Shown piece after piece: positions 4,466 through 63,892 of a DNA stretch of 64,000 bases. The position numbers and the translations under genes were made by a program. Location of the stretch: the IMG/VR virus record IMGVR_UViG_3300021399_000146. One strand, given 5' to 3'. Source of the DNA: an uncultured virus (IMG/VR IMGVR_UViG_3300021399_000146) (Duplodnaviria; Heunggongvirae; Uroviricota; Caudoviricetes). How positions within the stretch are numbered: the first letter of the stretch is position 1; each line of letters opens with the position of its first letter. The notes beneath the pieces are model-generated. The model was given only the letters and a program-made list of their open reading frames with translations, was not told the origin of the DNA and searched no databases.

Positions 4466-5156
4466 GTTGAGTTGACCAGACTCAACCGGTACCTTCCTCT
4501 CTCAGCCGAACAGAACCTCGACTTGATGGAGCCGTTACTTTACCTCACAGCACATAACTCTGCGAAACCAGGACTAGACACCGACAAATGCAACCTAACT
4601 TAACATAGCCTGTACCGTCTTCACTCTACCTTGCTTATCCCCACCGTGGCTTAGCAAGTCCTAACCGCTGTGTAACATGAGCTCACACAATCTGACCGGA
4701 CCGACACGCGACGAAACTGCATGCTGCGAAGCTGTACCAGAGCGGCATATAACCATAACCAATCGCTACGTTATATGGCCAGGCCATACCAATACTAAAC
4801 GTCCCAATCTAAACGTCACAACGCCACTGCTGAACATAACCTCTCTTCACCTCGCCCTGACTCGACACCACACCACTGTACTTTACCCACGCTTGGCCTA
4901 ATGCAACGCAACTGGACTCGACAGTACCATTACCACATAGCACAAATCAGTACGTAACCATACCTCAAATATACATGACATTGCACAACCTGAACAAGAC
5001 GCGGCACTGAGCGACGAGACCTGATCACACCGTCACGATACAAAATCACGCATCGCAAGACCAGAACATAACCGGACCTAACCAACACCACTGAACGCCG
5101 CTATCCTTGCCTAACCTGTACTTTACGTCTCACGTCGGGTTGACAGACCCGGAGAC
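4466..5156 (-). repeat. Degenerate pentanucleotide-periodic array (NNN-RC on +, GY-NNN on -) bounded by two related hairpins; candidate ncRNA/guide array
   Basis: E.g. tttac ctcac agcac ataac tctgc gaaac; tcgac accac accac tgtac tttac; markedly C/A-skewed and more GC-rich than the flanks; no credible ORF; strand inferred from flanking genes. Confidence 0.75.
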
Positions 5157-6119: not shown

Positions 6120-6983
6120 TTACAACCATCCAGGAGTTATTCTACCATGCATATGATCAGTCACATTAGATGCAACTGTATATACATCAGGAAGATCCGG
6201 ATTGTTATCAATCTTCATATATTTCGAATCAACAGGGAACATCTGATATTCCTGTGTCATCTTTAAACCGTTTGTACCCTTAAAGAGTCTTATTCTCTCT
6301 TCTCCAGAGATTCTTGCTCTCAATTCTCTATCTTCGTATACCTTTCCGCATACAGTACATTTATAGCTTGAGAAATCTGAACCTGCAAATGCCATTGTTT
6401 TGTTACCACATATACATTCGAACTGATCCATCGAAGATGGGAATATATATGCATAATCAATACATACTGGTCTATTACCTGGAGCTAATCCCCAGTTTGC
6501 ATAGGTTCTTTCTGTCATACCTACATCACCAAGCAAATATCTTTTACTCCATTCTTGAAGAATTTTTCTTATTGATGAATTGTGTTGCCACATTTCATTT
6601 TGTGAAGTAAAAGCGGGACAGTAGTCGGCCACCAATAGGTGGCCACCACTACTTATCTCGTACGCGTAAGCAACATTTGGCATCAAATCTTCACATATTG
6701 AGAATTCCTGCATGTTATCAGCAACGCCTTCTCGATCGAGAGCGATCTTGAGAGCATAGCCGTCATACTTCACAATGAAACGATTTGTACCAGTGCCGAT
6801 TTCTATATAATCTATATCATACTTTTGTAAGAGTTCAATTACTTTTTCTTTTCTGGAAGTAGCTCTCAATCCCTTCTGGAGAGGGATCTCACCTATTTCA
6901 CATTTGAACTCTAACGGAAGAGAATTGAGACGTGACCGGAATTGACGCTTGTATTCGTCAACGAGGTTTACGTCTTCATTCAT
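6120..6983 (-). CDS. Protein-kinase-fold protein with C-terminal zinc ribbon
   Basis: Gly loop IGTGTNRF, beta3 Lys YALKIA, helix-C Glu (NMQEF), catalytic-loop-like GDVGMTERTYANWG, DFG-equivalent IDYA; CxC...CTVC. Confidence 0.7.
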   Translation of the reverse strand: MNEDVNLVDEYKRQFRSRLNSLPLEFKCEIGEIPLQKGLRATSRKEKVIELLQKYDIDYIEIGTGTNRFIVKYDGYALKIALDREGVADNMQEFSICEDLMPNVAYAYEISSGGHLLVADYCPAFTSQNEMWQHNSSIRKILQEWSKRYLLGDVGMTERTYANWGLAPGNRPVCIDYAYIFPSSMDQFECICGNKTMAFAGSDFSSYKCTVCGKVYEDRELRARISGEERIRLFKGTNGLKMTQEYQMFPVDSKYMKIDNNPDLPDVYTVASNVTDHMHGRITPGWL

Positions 6984-52895: not shown

Positions 52896-54311
52896 TTATA
52901 CGGCATATTCATCATCGTCATACATGTCCATTGTGATATGCAGACGTGATTCAAAGACGATATCATATGCACCATCATTAGATCCAAGATCATTGAGAAT
53001 ATTATTAACATTGAATGGATCAATCTGTCCAGCAACATCAGGTGCTTTAGCCAGTAACTTAGTGAGCTCTTCCTTTGCAGCCAACATGAATATTCTATAT
53101 GTATCCTTATTATCAGCGAAGTCCTCATAGATATTCTTCCAAGAGAATTTCTCGGATATTTCTTCGCCAGTTGGTGATAATACTTTATATCCACGACGGT
53201 CACCTTTGATACGACCTTTGTCTTCAAGGAACTTAACAAGAGTCCTCAAATTATCGGCACCATTCTTTCTCTTATCAATAATGATACGAGCGGATAGACC
53301 TGTCTTGGCATTTCCAGATTCATTTGTAGAAACCTTGGTGGGTTCAAAGAGTACCGTATTACCTTCAAAACCATCTGTGGCTTCATGATATCTGGAGTCT
53401 TCTTTGATCTCACCGGTAAGCGTTATTAATGCAGAGGCATTATACTCGACACTTCTACCACCACTGATCTTGACATCCTTATTACCATACTGGAACTGTT
53501 TCTTTGGTCCGGCAAATGCAGCCATAGCAACATTTGCATTCTCATGTGCGATTGTTATGAGAATGATATTTGCTTCTTTGAGCATCGGTAAGATATCATT
53601 AAGAACACCTTTAAGTGTTTTAGCGTTCTGCATACCGTCTGTGTTAGAACGCATTTCCTTCTGCTTATCCCATTCCTTCTTATCACGCATATCATATTCC
53701 TTGGCGATTACATCTGATAATGAATCCAGGAACACGAGTGTTGGTGGCATAAGCATGATGGGACGGTTGTGATCATCTACTTCTAACGTATCCTTTGTTA
53801 ACACATCTTTATATTTCATCTTGTTTTCATATATCTCTGTAATGTATTCCTGAAGAGTATCGTAACCGATAGCACCATTCTTGATAGTGTATCGAGGATA
53901 GTCTTCATCGAACCATGACTCAGGCAGCTTAGTAAGAGTTTTAACTCTCTGAAGAGATAGTCTGTTTTCTGCATCAATGTGTACAACGTTACCACCGAAC
54001 TGATATGCGATGTTTGCAACCATTTGGATACCGAGCGTTGTTTTGAACGACTGGGTTGCTCCTGTCAGTACATTGAATGATCCAGCCTGAAGACCTATAC
54101 ATTCTCTTTGTTTTATGATCTTACCTGATTCATCTCGAACATTCACGATATATCCAAGATAATAGTCTATAACAGATATTCCTGTAGGATAACAATAATC
54201 AACAAGAGTATTCTTTTTGAATACTTTTGATGTTCCTCCTCCTGACAGGACTGTCATGATGTTAAGGTCCTTCAAATCAGCTTCCAGGGCTGATGCTTTC
54301 TTAGTGGCCAA
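52896..54311 (-). CDS. uvsX: RecA/UvsX-like recombinase
   Basis: PTGISVID, Walker A GATQSFKTT, HIDAEN, Walker B VFLDSL, SGGRSVEY. Confidence 0.85.
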   Translation of the reverse strand: MATKKASALEADLKDLNIMTVLSGGGTSKVFKKNTLVDYCYPTGISVIDYYLGYIVNVRDESGKIIKQRECIGLQAGSFNVLTGATQSFKTTLGIQMVANIAYQFGGNVVHIDAENRLSLQRVKTLTKLPESWFDEDYPRYTIKNGAIGYDTLQEYITEIYENKMKYKDVLTKDTLEVDDHNRPIMLMPPTLVFLDSLSDVIAKEYDMRDKKEWDKQKEMRSNTDGMQNAKTLKGVLNDILPMLKEANIILITIAHENANVAMAAFAGPKKQFQYGNKDVKISGGRSVEYNASALITLTGEIKEDSRYHEATDGFEGNTVLFEPTKVSTNESGNAKTGLSARIIIDKRKNGADNLRTLVKFLEDKGRIKGDRRGYKVLSPTGEEISEKFSWKNIYEDFADNKDTYRIFMLAAKEELTKLLAKAPDVAGQIDPFNVNNILNDLGSNDGAYDIVFESRLHITMDMYDDDEYAV

Positions 54312-59180: not shown

Positions 59181-59333
59181 ATATATAATACTGTATTCAT
59201 TCTCATGTTAATAATATATATTTGAAAAAAGAAAAAGAATTGTGGGGGGCATAAAGCCCCCAAGGTAAATGATGAAACTATTTGTAGAACGTCGGAGGTC
59301 CACCAATGGATCCTAACCAAGGTGGGCCATATA

Positions 59334-59516
59334 TAAAACCGCTCATGAGAATAATGGTGGCAGTGTATAGTTTGCCCAGCGCCTCCGTGTTAAACGCAGT
59401 ATCCTGTTCCCGATACCATCGGCTTTAATGTTTAACTACAACCGGGGAGTGTCTTTTAAAATAATTATCAATTATTCAATGAAGTAACACTACCGTCTGC
59501 TTCATGAGCGGTTTTA
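59334..59516 (-). ncRNA. Y-RNA-like element Y1 (no tRNA domain seen)
   Basis: 15-bp terminal stem, GAAGCAG-ACGGTAGTGT-TACTTC ... ACACTGCCACCATTATTCTC; starts 8 nt after the Ro60 stop. Confidence 0.75.
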
Positions 59517-59523
59517 AACTTAT

Positions 59524-61248
59524 TTAATTTTTGGGAGACTCATGAGGAGAAGTGCTCTTCCACTCTATGTTATCCCACTGCTTGATGTATTCGTGTGCAA
59601 AGAGTATCTCTTTGCCAGTCCATCCTGTAAGCATTGCACATCTGTATGTCATCTGAGGAACTACGACGTTGTCATATCCCGCAGTCTGAACAGAGAATAC
59701 ATTGAGCTTTGGGTTAACCTTCTTACGGTAATCAAGTATAAGCTTGTATACATTGATCATACCGCGAAGGTCTACTTGTCTATCCCTTCCCCATACTTTG
59801 TATGTCCAACGTGAACGCTGTCCATACTTATAACTGAACTCATCTATGTATTCCCTCTGATCCTTGCCGGTTCCATACAGACCACCACAGCCTGCTTGCA
59901 TGTCAGAGAATATGAACAAGTTGTCAACCCATACATGATTCTCGATAGCATTCTTGAACCATTTCCAGATTCCTCCTTCGGTCTGACCACCGATATCAGA
60001 ATAATGGTCGGCATCGATTTCTGATGCCTGTTTGAGAACACCATTTCTGTGTGAAACAGGAAACTCTTTGTAGTTGTCACCGAACTTGACAACGTAGCCC
60101 TCATCTGAACACTGCGCTGCAATGACAGATGACAGATTGTCGATATGCGCTACTGTGGTAGAACCGTATTCACTTGTCAGTGCACCCCAAGCGGAGCCGG
60201 AGTTATCAGACAGAGATACGGTAACACCTTTGAGTTTAGGGAGGTTCTCGACTGCGGCATCGATACACTCCTCAAGACCGTCAAGTATAACAGGAAGATG
60301 ATGTACTTTACTCTCATTCTTGAGTCTGTTGTAAGCAGCCTCATATCTGAATGGGAACTGTTTTCCTTCCTTTACGCCATCCTTAAGATCAGCCATATAT
60401 GCCTTGCAGAATTCAATATCATCGATTTCTGTGAAGACATTCTTGATGTTCCTCAGGAGAGCCATGTGTCCCATCTTGGTAGTAGCAAGAATATCCTTCC
60501 AGCTCATACCACGAGACTTCTTCTGCTCCCATGTCTCATCCTCTTCTTTAACCTGAACCGTACCAGTCTTCATAAGTTCATCAAGAACCTCTGAATTAGC
60601 ATGAGTCAAGCGTACTGCATTGATCATACCAAGATCAGCATTCTTATACTTATTAACCTGATAACGGCCAAGATGAGAAAGCTTATCAGCTATACTCCTC
60701 TTGAGGATAGAAGGCATGTTGTTCTTCTTACCTTCGTTGATGAAGAGGTAATAAGAACACTGTGATGCAGGCTCATCAGCCCTCATCATAACCTGTGCAT
60801 TATATTCGTTGAACTTGCCAGGATTCTGGTCAGACCATTCTTTCCTTTTGGGATGAACGGCTGCACGAACCATGATTACCTGAGGATTCAACCTCATGTA
60901 GTAATCCTTTCTAAGCTCAACCGCAAGTTTCAGAGTTCCCTCAAAGTCATAGTCAAGAGCCTTGTCTATAACCTCCTGGAAGATCTCCGTTGTTGACTTC
61001 TTATCATAGTCTTTCGTGATGAGTTCATCATCTTCGAAAGTAGCATCTTCCTTCTCAAATGTTCCATCTGAGATGTTGTTTCTGTAATAGGAAGGCTCAC
61101 CAAAGATAGAAGAAGCAGCAACCATTTTGAGAGTATCGAGTGGATTAATCTTATAAGATTGACCTCCCATAAAGTTTGTCACTACTTCATCAGGCTTGAG
61201 TTTCTGATTATCAGTCATCTTCTTAGCCATGTCTGAAATTCTGCTCAT
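59524..61248 (-). CDS. rsr: TROVE-domain Ro60/Rsr-like RNA-binding protein
   Basis: N-terminal NFMGGQSY..SSIFGEPSYY, MRLNP, MALLRNI, KQFPFRY, vWA MIDAS DNSGS, GGQT, FSDMQ, LTGWT; 574 aa. Confidence 0.93.
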   Translation of the reverse strand: MSRISDMAKKMTDNQKLKPDEVVTNFMGGQSYKINPLDTLKMVAASSIFGEPSYYRNNISDGTFEKEDATFEDDELITKDYDKKSTTEIFQEVIDKALDYDFEGTLKLAVELRKDYYMRLNPQVIMVRAAVHPKRKEWSDQNPGKFNEYNAQVMMRADEPASQCSYYLFINEGKKNNMPSILKRSIADKLSHLGRYQVNKYKNADLGMINAVRLTHANSEVLDELMKTGTVQVKEEDETWEQKKSRGMSWKDILATTKMGHMALLRNIKNVFTEIDDIEFCKAYMADLKDGVKEGKQFPFRYEAAYNRLKNESKVHHLPVILDGLEECIDAAVENLPKLKGVTVSLSDNSGSAWGALTSEYGSTTVAHIDNLSSVIAAQCSDEGYVVKFGDNYKEFPVSHRNGVLKQASEIDADHYSDIGGQTEGGIWKWFKNAIENHVWVDNLFIFSDMQAGCGGLYGTGKDQREYIDEFSYKYGQRSRWTYKVWGRDRQVDLRGMINVYKLILDYRKKVNPKLNVFSVQTAGYDNVVVPQMTYRCAMLTGWTGKEILFAHEYIKQWDNIEWKSTSPHESPKN

Positions 61249-61294: not shown

Positions 61295-61418
61295 ATAGAC
61301 CCATAAGAATATTTATACTGTGTAAATTTTATATCCCGCGGAGACAGTTGCGGTCGCTAAACATTGTCAGCATTTTGGCGTCTCGAAGTAACAGCATAGG
61401 TCTGCATTATGGGTCTAT
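61295..61418 (-). ncRNA. Y-RNA-like element Y2 (no tRNA domain seen)
   Basis: Terminal stem ATAGACCCATAA/TTATGGGTCTAT, TGCAG..TTACTTC module, internal GAGAC/GTCTC stem. Confidence 0.75.
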
Positions 61419-61429
61419 AATAATAAGCG

Positions 61430-61579
61430 AACATGCATGAGAATATTGGTACGGCGTACATAACCCATCTTTTGGAAAGATGGGTCGTCAGGAATTGAAC
61501 CTGAAATGTAAGATTTGCAGTCTTATGTGTTTACCATATTTCACCACGAAGTATCCGTACCGACTGCATCATGCATGTT
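61430..61579 (-). ncRNA. Y-RNA-like element Y3 carrying D, anticodon (GCA, Cys) and T arms but no acceptor stem
   Basis: GATGCAG-TCGGTACGG-ATACTTC, D arm, TAAGA-CT-GCA-AA-TCTTA, CAGG-TTCAATT-CCTG, extra hairpin, CCGTACCAATATTCTC. Confidence 0.8.
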
Positions 61580-61606
61580 TTTAAAGGGATTGGGTAATAC
61601 AACCCT

Positions 61607-61684
61607 TGGTCTCACATACTTGATTTGAACAAGTGATCTTCCGGGTATGAACCGGACGCTCTGGGCCAACTAAGCTAATGTGAG
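61607..61684 (-). tRNA. tRNA-Met (CAT), elongator-like
   Basis: TCCGG-TT-CAT-AC-CCGGA arm, paired acceptor, CCA. Confidence 0.85.
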
Positions 61685-61688
61685 AATA

Positions 61689-61830
61689 GATATTATAACG
61701 AGAATAATGATAGGGTTTAATAAGCCAAACGCTCTAACCTATTGAGCTAATTTCCTAAGACAGGGAATAAAAGAATCGAACTTTCAACATTTTGGGAAGT
61801 AACCCATATCGACTGCTTCGTTATAATATC
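61689..61830 (-). ncRNA. Y-RNA-like element Y4, circularly permuted tRNA mimic
   Basis: 13-bp terminal stem, AGCAG..TTACTTC, then T arm (TTCGATT), loop-closed acceptor, D arm TAGCTCAATAGGTTAGAGC. Confidence 0.8.
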
Positions 61831-61832
61831 AT

Positions 61833-61908
61833 TGGTGGACCCGGATAGAATCGAACTATCGACACGTGGTTCTTCAGACCACTGCTCTACCAACTGAGCT
61901 ACAGATCC
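61833..61908 (-). tRNA. tRNA-Phe (GAA)
   Basis: GTGGT-CT-GAA-GA-ACCAC arm, CCA. Confidence 0.92.
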
Positions 61909-61913
61909 ATTTA

Positions 61914-62061
61914 AAACATAAACGAGAAAAATGCATTCGGGTTATGGTCTTACCAGTGACCGGCATAGCCCATAGGACTATGAAGAGATTCGAACTCTTG
62001 GATCGGTTTTAACGTGACATGTTAATCGAAGTAACCGAACGCTACTGCATCGTTTATGTTT
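61914..62061 (-). ncRNA. Y-RNA-like element Y5, circularly permuted, with Asp-like (GTC) anticodon hairpin
   Basis: GATGCAG..TTACTTC, TTAAC-AT-GTC-AC-GTTAA, AAGAG-TTCGAAT-CTCTT, CATAGTCC-TAT-GGGCTATG, GGTC-ACTGGTAA-GACC. Confidence 0.8.
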
Positions 62062-62064
62062 AAT

Positions 62065-62141
62065 TGGCGCCTAGTGTAGGACTTGAACCTACGACACACG
62101 GATTAACAGTCCGTCGCTACTGCCAACTGAGCTAACCAGGC
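62065..62141 (-). tRNA. tRNA-Asn (GTT)
   Basis: ACGGA-CT-GTT-AA-TCCGT arm, GCCA end. Confidence 0.92.
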
Positions 62142-62145
62142 GTAT

Positions 62146-62299
62146 TGGTGGGGGAGGACAGGATTCGAACCTGCGAAGCATAATGCACCGGATTTACAGT
62201 CCACGAATGAAGTATCCGTTACCGCTGCATCATCATTAGACGAGAATTATGTAACGGCGTCCTTGGTTCAGGCGCCTTTGGCCACTTGGCTACTCCCCC
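62146..62299 (-). ncRNA. Y6: tRNA-Tyr(GTA) scaffold with the Y module inserted between D and anticodon arms (YrlA-like)
   Basis: GGGGGAG acceptor, D arm, insert TTCTCGTC-TAAT-GATGATGCAG..ATACTTC, TGGA-CT-GTA-AA-TCCG, long variable arm, T arm, ACCA. Confidence 0.85.
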
Positions 62300-62312
62300 A
62301 TATTAATATAGA

Positions 62313-62429
62313 TATCAATTGCTCCTTTCACCCAGGAGGGACTCGAACCCTCGTCTTCTTTCATATGTTATATAACATACTACTCAACGCATTAACCTCT
62401 GTGCTACCAGACTGCGGGAGCAATTGATA
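62313..62429 (-). ncRNA. Atypical tRNA-like RNA, possible divergent Y RNA
   Basis: 13-bp terminal stem TATCAATTGCTCC/GGAGCAATTGATA, adjacent GCAG, D-arm-like TAGCACAGAGGTTAATGC, T arm GAGGG-TTCGAGT-CCCTC; no CCA, no TACTTC. Confidence 0.6.
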
Positions 62430-62431
62430 AT

Positions 62432-62570
62432 TGGGCCGGAATACAAGAATCGAACTTGTGACAAGGGGATTAACATTCCATGAAGTATCCGTTACCGCTG
62501 CATCATCATTAAATGAGAATATTGTAACAGTATATTTTCACCTACTCTAACCAACTGAGTTAATTCCGGC
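62432..62570 (-). ncRNA. Y7: tRNA-Asn-like scaffold with inserted Y module (YrlA-like)
   Basis: GCCGGAA/TTCCGGC acceptor and CCA, D arm, insert, residual GGA-AT-GTT-AA-TCC, T arm ACAAG-TTCGATT-CTTGT. Confidence 0.82.
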
Positions 62571-62574
62571 ATGT

Positions 62575-62714
62575 TGGGGCTGGATACATGACTCGAACAT
62601 GTGACACGGGCGGCCCTATCGCAACGAAGTAACTCATACTCCTGCATCATCGTTAGATGAGAAATAACGTACAAGTACATTTCTACCTGCTCTACCGACT
62701 GAGCTAATCCAGCC
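62575..62714 (-). ncRNA. Y8: tRNA scaffold with inserted Y module (YrlA-like), anticodon arm degenerate
   Basis: GGCTGGA/TCCAGCC acceptor and CCA, TAGCTCAGTCGGTAGAGC, TTCTCATC-TAAC-GATGATGCAG..TTACTTC, ACATG-TTCGAGT-CATGT. Confidence 0.82.
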
Positions 62715-62875
62715 ATAAATAAAGTAATATTTCTATTACTTTCTTCACGATAATAATATGTATTTCATTTTTATAAATAATAGAAATGAAATAATGATAA
62801 GATAGGAAGGGAATGGTACCACAAACGTGGTACCATTCAGGTGTTGTATAGATACAGTCCTGGGTGAGACTGTAT

Positions 62876-62950
62876 TGGTGACGCTACCGAGAATCGAACT
62901 CGGGACTCCTCCGTGAAAGGGAGATGTCTTAACCTCTTGACCATAGCGCC
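62876..62950 (-). tRNA. tRNA-Glu (TTC)
   Basis: TCTCC-CT-TTC-AC-GGAGG arm, CCA. Confidence 0.92.
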
Positions 62951-62959
62951 ATATAATAA

Positions 62960-63111
62960 AGCTTCATGAGAAAATCATAAATGGTTAAATGTGATAATGG
63001 GTGCTTATTTCAGCGTCTGCCAATTTCGCCATGTATGGAATTCCATACAGCAAGATTCGAACTCGCATGCGTCCTGTTATGAAGTAACCATCTACTCTGC
63101 ATCACAAAGCT
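62960..63111 (-). ncRNA. Y-RNA-like element Y9, circularly permuted with Leu-type D arm
   Basis: GATGCAG-AGTAGATGG-TTACTTC, GCGAG-TTCGAAT-CTTGC, TGTATGG-AATT-CCATACA, TGGCGAAATTGGCAGACGC, ..TTTTCTCATG. Confidence 0.8.
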
Positions 63112-63198
63112 AGATTATCAAAAGGGTGAGGCGGGTTTATGACCTCACCCTAGAAAGGATGGATGTTTCATGAAATGCTCCATATTCCATGAAACACT

Positions 63199-63284
63199 TG
63201 GTGGGAAGAGATGGAGTCGAACCACCCGAGTCTAAGACAGCAGATTTACAGTCTGCCCCGCTACCACTTACGGTATATCTTCCC
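63199..63284 (-). tRNA. tRNA-Tyr (GTA)
   Basis: GCAGA-CT-GTA-AA-TCTGC arm, long variable arm, ACCA. Confidence 0.92.
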
Positions 63285-63295
63285 ACATAAAACAT

Positions 63296-63390
63296 TACAA
63301 AGTATTCTATCAGACTCGAACTGATGACCTCTTGCACCATTCGGTGATCAAGCGCTCTAACCATCTGAGCTAAGCGTCCAATGCAATGTA
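63296..63390 (-). ncRNA. tRNA-like RNA or pseudo-tRNA with remodelled anticodon arm
   Basis: Canonical D arm TAGCTCAGATGGTTAGAGC and T arm ATCAG-TTCGAGT-CTGAT, but anticodon arm is CTTG-AT-CACC-GAAT-GGTG-CAAG, acceptor unpaired, no CCA. Confidence 0.6.
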
Positions 63391-63545
63391 TATGCCCATG
63401 ATGATGAAGAGGAGTACCACACCATGGCTGGCCCATATTATTTTTTAAGCACCGAGTATTCATATGACCTAGTCTAAAATGCATGTTTAGACATGTATGA
63501 TATATTCCAATCAAACGGTCGCTCCTCATGGCCATCCGTGCTGTC

Positions 63546-63621
63546 TGGTGAGCGTAATGGGACTTGAACCCATGGCCCTACGCTTAAAAGGCGTATGCTC
63601 TACCAGCTGAGCTATACGCTC
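63546..63621 (-). tRNA. tRNA-Lys (TTT)
   Basis: TACGC-CT-TTT-AA-GCGTA arm, ACCA. Confidence 0.93.
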
Positions 63622-63644
63622 ACGAATTAAGATATGAATGATAT

Positions 63645-63720
63645 TGGTGGAACATACGGGACTCGAACCTGTGATCCTCGAGTTATGAGCTCGATGCCTT
63701 ACCAACTTGGCCAATGTTCC
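63645..63720 (-). tRNA. tRNA with CAT anticodon (Met or Ile2)
   Basis: TCGAG-CT-CAT-AA-CTCGA arm, ACCA. Confidence 0.88.
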
Positions 63721-63722
63721 AA

Positions 63723-63799
63723 TGGTCCGGATGACAGGACTCGAACCTGCGGCATCTTGGTCCCAAACCAAGCACTCTGCCAAACTGAGTTACATCCGG
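63723..63799 (-). tRNA. tRNA-Pro (TGG)
   Basis: CTTGG-TT-TGG-GA-CCAAG arm, ACCA. Confidence 0.93.
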
Positions 63800-63807
63800 A
63801 TATAAAA

Positions 63808-63892
63808 TGGTGCTGCTTGTCGGATTTGAACCGACACGTCGTTAGACACAAGAACCTAAATCTTGCGCGTATGCCAATTTCGCCAAAGCAGC
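63808..63892 (-). tRNA. tRNA-Leu (TAG)
   Basis: CAAGA-TT-TAG-GT-TCTTG arm, long variable arm, ACCA. Confidence 0.93.

Follow-up and report, generated by a model that had tools for sequence, protein, structure and literature searches.

YrlA RNAs occur in S. Typhimurium and in more than 250 bacteria and phages, form the Rfam family RF02553 and, by the criterion given with them, have a Ro60 (TROVE) gene no more than about 4 kb away on their own strand (Chen et al. 2014, PMC4201824). The study 10.1101/312249 describes their structure as resembling a circularly permuted tRNA with no free CCA end and no anticodon loop, and already proposes their origin from dimeric tRNA transcripts. This proposed descent has so far been without a natural intermediate. 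Y RNAs are also known from phages: Table S2 of PMC4201824 covers mycobacteriophages, CcrColossus and Bacillus phage G, with one YrlA for the last, Yrl1 and Yrl2 of Thermus phage phiLo are bound by the Ro60 of that phage (PMC12135203), and TROVE proteins have been noted in jumbo phages (PMC7824862). Here we analyse a 64,000-nucleotide (nt) stretch of DNA from an uncultured virus of the Caudoviricetes (IMG/VR IMGVR_UViG_3300021399_000146), called the window throughout, in which an array of tRNA and Y-RNA-like units lies next to a Ro60 gene. Three of these units, Y6, Y7 and Y8, are a real and conserved variant of the YrlA kind that is not permuted, and the data support a link between tRNAs and Y RNAs through this unpermuted form. 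The systems of the mycobacteriophages, CcrColossus, phage G and phiLo likewise combine a phage Ro60 with adjacent Y RNAs, but those listed for them are all permuted or plain-stem RNAs.

Y6, Y7 and Y8 lie on the minus strand and pair into full cloverleaves with an open acceptor stem of 7 base pairs (bp), a D arm, a T arm, a discriminator base and an encoded CCA, as the initial annotation of this DNA, made from its letters alone, had claimed. The D arm stands 5' of the T arm, which is the order of a tRNA. What sets the three apart from ordinary tRNAs is an extra arm, a stem-loop of 61-68 nt that leaves the anticodon stem between nucleotides 28 and 29. The pairs 27-28/42-43 are kept in all three units, then the insert follows from the 5' strand, and then a 3-bp stem with a 7-nt loop, so the anticodon stem is split 2+3 rather than being a continuous helix of 5 bp. 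The annotation had put a Ro-type insert of about 65 nt right after the D arm; the insert and its size hold, while its site is two base pairs into the anticodon stem. The GUA anticodon arm that it saw in Y6 is also present, with a loop (CUGUAAA, 62193-62199) that equals the loop of the intact tRNA-Tyr of the array, but Y6 does not stand alone in this, because in Y7 and Y8 too the insert is followed by the short stem and loop.

The bodies of the three units are clearly individual. Y6 has the acceptor stem GGGGGAG/CUCCCCC with A73, its CCA at 62146-62148, a 3-bp D stem with a tRNA-Tyr-like loop and an insert of 68 nt (62203-62270). Y7 carries G-1, the acceptor stem CCGGAAU/AUUCCGG and C73, with its CCA at 62432-62434, an insert of 61 nt (62480-62540) and an anticodon arm of 3 bp with the loop AUGUUAA. 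Y8 is built in the same way from G-1, GCUGGAU/AUCCAGC and C73, with the CCA at 62575-62577 and an insert of 63 nt (62623-62685). Y7 and Y8 have U8, standard D and T arms whose stems pair completely, and a 5-nt variable loop ending in C48, and they keep the nucleotides of the elbow and the Levitt pair (U8, G18G19, G15 with C48, G53-C61 and a UUCRANY T loop). The description of Y6 and Y7 as unrelated, one tyrosine-type and the other asparagine-like, is correct as far as different tRNA types are concerned, but the acceptor end of Y7 (G-1:C73) is histidine-like and only its loop resembles that of tRNA-Asn. A separate detail of Y6 is one extra C at 62157, between the T stem and the 3' strand of the acceptor stem, which is kept in all three Y6 orthologues (window, L011 and L001).

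The insert is a two-helix module with an internal loop, and it is common to the neighbouring Y units; in the window, nine units that carry it are found with a regular expression and a tenth by eye. Its 5' strand reads ..NNGA WGCAG N8-18 UACUUC and its 3' strand ..UUC UCNN.., which gives helix 1, a conserved internal loop (WGCAG opposite UUC) and helix 2; in Y6-Y8 the resulting Ro stem is closed by a 4-nt loop. A finder that accepted helix 1 with at least five of six pairs and a helix-2 duplex of -6 kcal/mol or better returned 76 modules, 60 of them distinct after identical copies were dropped, from 23 of 36 sources (the window and 35 related loci of IMG/VR). All 76 are on the Ro60-sense strand; the opposite strand gave none over these 439,588 nt, and every module found lies within about 4.1 kb of a Ro60 gene. 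The two bases preceding GA covary with the two after UC (AU/AU, AC/GU, CU/AG), GG/CC replaces GA/UC in one module, and nearly every unit has a helix-2 sequence of its own, which is always complementary. The loci L022-L035, with Ro60 proteins of 44-49% identity, use a variant module, GAAGCGG..UUACAUCG; because the finder misses this variant, the module counts for these loci are underestimates.

The related loci were obtained with an alignment of Ro60 as query in viral contigs; Ro60 as a single query gave no match there. Among the 60 distinct modules 48 are open, as in permuted units, and 12 were scored as hairpins. Three of the hairpin calls (L011 7728, L012 7849 and L018 8600) were set aside, since in them the 3' strand of an open unit merely abuts the 5' strand of the next unit. 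This leaves nine chimeras in tRNA order, three in the window and two each in L001, L011 and L009, to which a scan for long cloverleaves that was independent of the motif added one with a divergent module (L022 7835-7969). In an alignment of six chimeras from five phage lineages, 99.2% of 119 cells pair as the cloverleaf predicts, and 16 of 21 pairs show compensatory changes, a result reached by none of 500 shuffles; slid controls were 33-49% paired. The covariation includes the pairs that flank the insertion site, 27-28/42-43 (GG/CC, UG/CA, CG/CG). G-1:C73 is present in five of the six members of the Y8 class (WIN_Y8, WIN_Y7, L011, L001, L249 and L009). A covariance model, R1, built from the six chimeras and searched against 34 sources (the duplicates L004, L005, L027, L029 and L032 being omitted) gave more than 110 bits only to its six training sequences and four near-identical copies. 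It scored Y6 at 54 bits, among ordinary tRNAs, and its false chimera-like matches arise from tandem permuted units such as L003 7956-8108.

The initial annotation took Y6-Y8 for tRNA genes that had recently been converted by a transplanted cassette, and this does not agree with their distribution. Orthologues of Y8 that carry the insert directly follow tRNA-Glu in L011 and L001, whose Ro60 proteins are 81% and 73% identical to that of the window, and a relative with the insert occurs in L009 (53%); L022 also counts among the loci with insert-bearing orthologues. Orthologues of Y6 in L011 (5202-5347) and L001 (3806-3949) share its acceptor stem, L001 having one compensatory pair, as well as A73, CCA and the GUA loop, and their anticodon stem is compensated, UGGA/UCCG in the window corresponding to UUAGA/UCUAA (5 bp) in both. 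Because insert-bearing orthologues of Y6 and Y8 have the insert at the same site in phages this far apart, the chimeras are old, and a fresh conversion is not supported by the sequence comparison. Comparing related phages for orthologous tRNAs that lack the insert had been proposed as a check; no insert-free orthologue of the Y6, Y7 or Y8 body was found among the related loci compared. Nor was a spliced form of Y6-Y8 found in contigs, which cannot prove its absence. The old insert-bearing orthologues, together with these two negative results, make Y6-Y8 a conserved, non-permuted Y-RNA-like class. Among the loci compared, Y7 was seen nowhere but in the window and its near-identical strain L211, which shows no differences from the window in the 433 nt of Y6-Y8 and 23 in the Ro60 ORF (open reading frame).

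The linkage to Ro60 is close. Y6-Y8 lie 0.9-1.5 kb upstream of the Ro60 ORF and on the same strand. The protein gives a Pfam TROVE match slightly under the cut-off (E 1e-4) and a match to the solved TROVE protein 9l5y/9kop (E 9e-6), and it has more than 3000 homologues, many annotated PF05731, on contigs of 160-390 kb. The DxSxS of its vWA domain, which we take to be the MIDAS metal-binding motif, is invariant in an alignment of 19 sequences. An AlphaFold model (pLDDT 81) has the Ro60 of Thermus phage phiLo as its top fold match (E 1e-15), the other top structural matches being D. radiodurans Rsr, Xenopus Ro and human Ro60. Going by this predicted fold, the neighbouring protein of the array is Ro60.

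Compared with YrlA, the three chimeras share the Ro60 neighbour on the same strand, tRNA-like D and T arms with the nucleotides of the tertiary contacts, and a Ro-type stem in the place of the anticodon stem, with an outer helix that ends in GA/UC and is followed by an internal loop. The differences concern topology. In YrlA the T arm comes before the D arm, a loop closes the acceptor stem and the termini of the RNA lie in the Ro stem. Y6-Y8 instead have an open acceptor stem with an encoded CCA and a loop on the Ro stem, they retain a residual anticodon arm, and they miss the Rfam threshold. The YrlA of M. smegmatis offers a partial parallel. According to PMC4201824, RNase P cleaves it and CCA is added to it in vivo in the Rsr-bound state, which yields a Ro-bound RNA with tRNA-like 5' and CCA 3' ends in a 7-bp acceptor stem, as predicted for Y6-Y8; that product, however, consists of two pieces from a permuted precursor, whereas Y6-Y8 are one piece in tRNA order with the Ro stem closed. 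The b7a-tRNA (Burroughs and Aravind 2016, as cited in 10.1101/312249) is a plain tRNA look-alike tied to Band-7/RtcB, and differs from Y6-Y8, as far as a comparison by description goes, in that no Ro-type stem is mentioned in the citing text.

Among deposited phages the nearest Ro60 is that of Bacillus phage G, with 50% identity. Its units carry the same module in the form GAAGCGG..UACUUC, with seven copies of the 5'-strand motif; one permuted YrlA unit lies at 4776-4940 of the phage G locus (L274) and at least four other copies are plain stems. A chimera in cloverleaf order was not found among the seven copies, the units at 6794 and 12363 being left unclassified. The further copies, matched as GAWGCGG..UACUUC on the Ro60 strand, start at 6258, 6458, 6565, 6689, 6794 and 12363 (regions 6231-6830 and 12363), the first four being read as plain stems without a tRNA domain. 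Transfer-messenger RNA (tmRNA) is another tRNA-like RNA with CCA and a large extra domain, and it exists in one-piece and in circularly permuted two-piece gene orders. It differs from Y6-Y8 in its partner SmpB, in its function and in the position of the insert, and in the window both topologies share one array. A literature search, whose coverage excluded two reviews and the supplementary figures of the 2014 YrlA paper, did not turn up any published Y RNA that follows the tRNA order and carries both CCA and an anticodon arm.

Taken together, this makes it probable that Y6-Y8 are conserved phage Y-RNA-like RNAs in native tRNA topology that are processed by tRNA enzymes, keep the insert and use its arm for docking Ro60. 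Gene anatomy, conservation, covariation and linkage to Ro60 can be read directly from the genomes, and from these we infer Ro60 binding, processing, retention of the insert in the mature RNA, and charging. The array upstream of the phage Ro60 gene would be transcribed as the source of the three RNAs. They would be released like their tRNA neighbours, with RNase P cutting the 5' end, so that G-1 is kept in Y7 and Y8, and with the 3' end trimmed back to the encoded CCA; only 4 nt separate Y8 from Y7. The products would be about 140-154 nt long and still contain the insert, whose Ro60-binding-type arm may dock the phage Ro60 as the equivalent stem of known Y RNAs does. Because the arm branches off between nucleotides 28 and 29 of the anticodon stem, the L-shaped tRNA body would be intact and could serve as a handle for tRNA-binding proteins. 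In topology Y6-Y8 are unpermuted counterparts of YrlA, with an open acceptor stem and a loop-closed Ro stem. Contigs of three metatranscriptome libraries contain insert-bearing Y6, Y7 and Y8. Two further observations on contigs were not used as evidence: none is joined across any insert, an absence that contigs cannot prove, and the spacer 62720-62863 has no cover in the RNA libraries X5 and X11 while it has cover in the DNA run X3.

Several points weigh against this interpretation. The RNA-library contigs may hold DNA and cannot show RNA ends, and expression and processing therefore stay at the level of what we infer. The 5'-strand motif here is RYGAWGCAG, with CGAAG in Y3 and UGAUG in Y6-Y8, and the published motif is GNCGAAN0-1G; its position, at the end of the outer helix and in the internal loop, does agree with the Rfam consensus cggCgaAUGC. 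The gathering score of Rfam YrlA (69 bits) was not reached in the window or in the 11 of 35 related loci tested, the best alignment being the full-length one of Y3 at 26.3 bits. The chimera class is rare, as it occurs in 4 of the 35 IMG/VR loci besides the window. The Y6 orthologues of L011 and L001 are without a D stem and that of L001 has A33 in its anticodon loop, and in the Y8 of L011 the stem segment adjacent to the junction is not conserved and the minimum-energy fold differs.

The same genes could alternatively be working tRNAs (tRNA-Tyr, tRNA-Asn and a third one), with an extra arm that is tolerated on the ribosome or removed by an unknown kind of splicing. In the window, Y6-Y8 are called neither by ARAGORN nor by Rfam, but once the insert is excised in a script ARAGORN returns tRNA-Tyr(GTA) for all three Y6 orthologues and tRNA-Asn(GTT) for Y7. 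Y6 moreover combines CCA, A73, a long variable arm and the GUA loop, and its anticodon stem changes with compensation among orthologues. We nevertheless consider this quite unlikely. ARAGORN calls intact tRNA-Tyr and tRNA-Asn genes in the same array, as the initial annotation had noted, the Y8 class yields no consistent anticodon after the same excision (agg, agtg, att/agg, atg), and A33 and the missing D stems of the Y6 orthologues do not fit. An intron, in particular, is not what the insert resembles: its position at 28/29 is outside the anticodon loop, it is 61-68 nt long, and Rfam gives no match to a group I intron (Intron_gpI) in the window, with no dedicated bulge-helix-bulge tool applied. 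Its conserved sequence and structure are, in addition, common to Y units that are not tRNAs. The retained anticodon loops could instead mean that the units act as decoys or sensors, aimed at nucleases or modification enzymes of the host that read such loops (GUA and GUU, with GUC in Y4 and GCA in Y2), so that Ro60 would be secondary or irrelevant. The loops are indeed kept in orthologues, GUA in all three Y6 genes, GUC in the Y4 units of both the window and L011, and GCA in those of Y2 in the window, L011 and L001, and three of the retained loops belong to the GUN group, the queuosine family, at which colicin E5-type nucleases are directed. This reading is unlikely, since the loops of the Y8 class are not conserved, a nuclease or repair ligase gene was not found in the 64-kb window, and the conserved Ro module with its strict Ro60 linkage would be left unexplained.

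It could also be argued that Y6-Y8 are pseudogenes, left without function when tRNA genes and Y-RNA genes recombined in a repeat-rich array. The array does hold many similar segments, the window encodes a UvsX-like recombinase, and exchange does occur, as a tract of 32 nt that Y6 and Y7 have in common shows, and as the tRNA-Asn beside Y6 suggests. This reading is nonetheless very unlikely: compensatory changes occur in every helix across lineages whose Ro60 proteins are 49-81% identical, the units are without a single difference from strain L211 where the Ro60 ORF has 23, and CCA and G-1:C73 are retained in several lineages. The cloverleaf itself would be incidental if the functional RNAs were permuted YrlA-type units cut across neighbours, composed of the T half of Y8 and the D half of Y7. 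These two genes are only 4 nt apart, and the second-best Rfam YrlA alignment, full-length at 22.9 bits, runs over their junction (62518-62625). Such a reading appears highly improbable: the acceptor strands pair 7/7 within each unit, while the 3' strand of Y8 matches the 5' strand of Y7 less well; in helix 2, the strand of Y8 forms 8/8 pairs with its own partner and 6/8 with that of Y7 (counted by eye); and dimeric tRNAs give false YrlA matches according to Chen et al. (PMC4201824).

The identity of Y6 and Y7 over 32 nt, on which the idea of a moving cassette was built, is exact. The 32-mer occurs exactly twice (Table 1), with no further match at up to three mismatches and none in 100 shuffles, whereas the remaining 35 pairs of the nine window modules agree at 11-24 of the 32 positions. 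It ends abruptly on both sides, where the flanks are 37/63 and 36/61 identical in a gapped alignment (about 59%). An assembly artefact had been named as what would undo the observation. The identity is not an artefact, because L211, a separately assembled metagenome contig that is 98.9% identical over 3879 nt, has both copies; contigs of four runs from three studies start or end at the edges of the repeat, as word-based assemblers would make them do. A contig of the RNA library X5 (62281-62527) spans copy 2 but departs from it at three positions (62488, 62490 and 62497), and because they fall inside the 32 nt, this co-occurring variant of Y7 differs from Y6. One of these changes turns G.U into A-U and another breaks a predicted pair, so that they favour neither direction of the exchange. 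The identity is limited to the 5' strand of the stem, and Y6 and Y7 differ at 5 of the 19 positions aligned in the insert's other half (counted by eye); for this reason the sequences indicate a recent short exchange, that is a conversion tract, between two existing modules. Recent copying between modules is thus retained from the initial annotation and the transfer of a whole cassette is not. The adjoining tRNA-Asn gene holds 14 of the 43 differences between L211 and the window, as if an allele had been replaced by recombination.

The derivation of Y RNAs from tRNAs, which the initial annotation also put forward, is compatible with all of this and is the hypothesis already published. One array beside Ro60 contains ordinary tRNAs, tRNA-order chimeras that have CCA and an anticodon arm, permuted units that still show an anticodon-like hairpin, and canonical permuted units; the coexistence of these four forms makes the route from tRNA to Y RNA testable. 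Bacillus phage G can be grown in the laboratory and has the same module, so that the binding of Ro60 to this type of module can be tested at the bench. The array also raises the question of whether an RNA bound by Ro60 could be recognised or charged by a synthetase. The tyrosyl-tRNA synthetase (TyrRS) would recognise Y6 if its A73, long variable arm and GUA loop are, as we presume, the bacterial TyrRS identity set, and the histidyl-tRNA synthetase (HisRS) would recognise Y7 and Y8, whose G-1:C73 we take to be the HisRS identity element. Y6-Y8 could then be chargeable Y RNAs that couple Ro60 to synthetases, EF-Tu or other tRNA-handling proteins, or decoys of GUN tRNAs, guarded by Ro60, that are offered to anticodon nucleases of the host, and at the same time unpermuted ancestors of YrlA, from which the permuted form would have arisen by tandem duplication. 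This extension is doubtful on present evidence; the natural tandem of Y8 and Y7 aligns to the YrlA model across its junction. If it were true, Y6-Y8 would be living examples of the unpermuted ancestor of permuted YrlA, with tandem duplication as the route.

Table 1. Positions of the RNA units, repeat copies and genes of the window to which the text refers
Feature	Position	Strand	Basis or remark
Y6, tRNA-Tyr-type cloverleaf (class II, long variable arm, A73, CCA)	62146-62299	minus	pairing; orthologues L011:5202-5347, L001:3806-3949
Y7, cloverleaf with G-1:C73 and CCA	62432-62570	minus	pairing; covariance model R1 127.4 bits
Y8, cloverleaf with G-1:C73 and CCA, decayed 3-bp anticodon arm	62575-62714	minus	orthologues L011:4741-4880, L001:4505-4655, L009:10074-10213
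Copy 1 of the 32-nt identity, in Y6, with hairpin loop, helix 1 and the Ro-type stem's 5' strand	62207-62238	minus	
Copy 2 of the 32-nt identity, in Y7	62480-62511	minus	
Ro60/Rsr orthologue, 574 amino acids, TROVE ring and vWA with DxSxS	59524-61248	minus	directly downstream of the RNA array, same strand
Tenth Ro-module unit, without recognisable tRNA-like domain	59330-59520	minus	immediately downstream of the Ro60 gene
Y1, Ro-module unit, ends in Ro stem, without recognisable tRNA-like domain	61300-61422	minus	directly upstream of the Ro60 gene
Y2, Ro-module unit, ends in Ro stem	61430-61586	minus	
Y3, Ro-module unit, ends in Ro stem	61690-61832	minus	
Y4, Ro-module unit, ends in Ro stem	61918-62060	minus	
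tRNA-Asn (GUU), intact	62065-62141	minus	ARAGORN
tRNA-like element without Ro module, in a long terminal stem, between Y7 and Y6	62328-62420	minus	Rfam tRNA 27.8 bits (sub-threshold); fold z-score -1.96
Y9, permuted YrlA-like unit, closed 7-bp acceptor stem	62985-63118	minus	
tRNA-Tyr (GUA), intact	63199-63284	minus	ARAGORN
UvsX-like recombinase gene	52896-54311		

The surroundings are those of a large uncultured phage, the source of the window, with PHROG and Pfam matches to a DnaB-like helicase, a GroEL-like chaperonin, a virion protein, a primase, an NAD-dependent ligase, the UvsX-like recombinase and SbcCD. The stretch is present in sequencing runs from gut metagenomes of sheep, cattle and other animals. 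A DNA search of deposited phages for close relatives of it gave matches to tRNA-Tyr only. ARAGORN calls ten tRNA genes in the window, all on the minus strand and nine of them within 61607-63892, and Y1-Y4 are interleaved with tRNA-Met and tRNA-Phe. A scan for promoters and terminators stayed at chance level (8 promoter-like sites where chance gives 6.8, and 1 terminator-like site where it gives 1.4).

The typical unit of the window ends in the Ro stem and encloses a T arm, a closed acceptor-like hairpin and a D arm, which is the YrlA design. Y4 is permuted and retains an anticodon-like hairpin of 5 bp with a 7-nt loop (AUGUCAC, GUC) between the 5' strand of the Ro stem and the T arm, and its counterpart in L011 is called tRNA-Asp by ARAGORN. 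Y2 represents a third architecture, in which the Ro stem encloses a near-complete tRNA-Cys-like cloverleaf with a GCA loop (Rfam tRNA 46.5 bits over 61485-61549) and an extra hairpin. A kinship of the bodies of Y7 and Y3, which have 19 of 24 positions in common, was considered and dropped as uninformative, as tRNA-Pro and Y6 agree at 20 of 24. There are also tRNA-like elements with aberrant anticodon regions and long terminal stems that are without a Ro module, at 63301-63379 (minus strand, Rfam tRNA 34 bits), between Y7 and Y6 as listed in Table 1, and at L001 3647-3751.

Wider pattern searches returned mostly known sequences. A loose hairpin pattern matched at least 120 loci in viral contigs, with one true chimera among the matches listed. 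A pattern anchored on the D arm matched two loci in viral contigs and 116 in metagenome contigs, and five of the latter are true chimeras, all of them copies or near copies of known ones. Other long cloverleaf-like units, at L020 1902-2046, L017 1901-2045 and L023 4008-4131, have a 7/7 acceptor stem as well as D and T arms; their large anticodon-region inserts are without the Ro motif. In related phages, the neighbourhoods of tRNAs and Y RNAs also hold a ROOL RNA scoring 293 bits, a group I intron scoring 79 bits and a tmRNA scoring 77.6 bits (L017 642-1225; L022 11593-11795 and 12261-12592).

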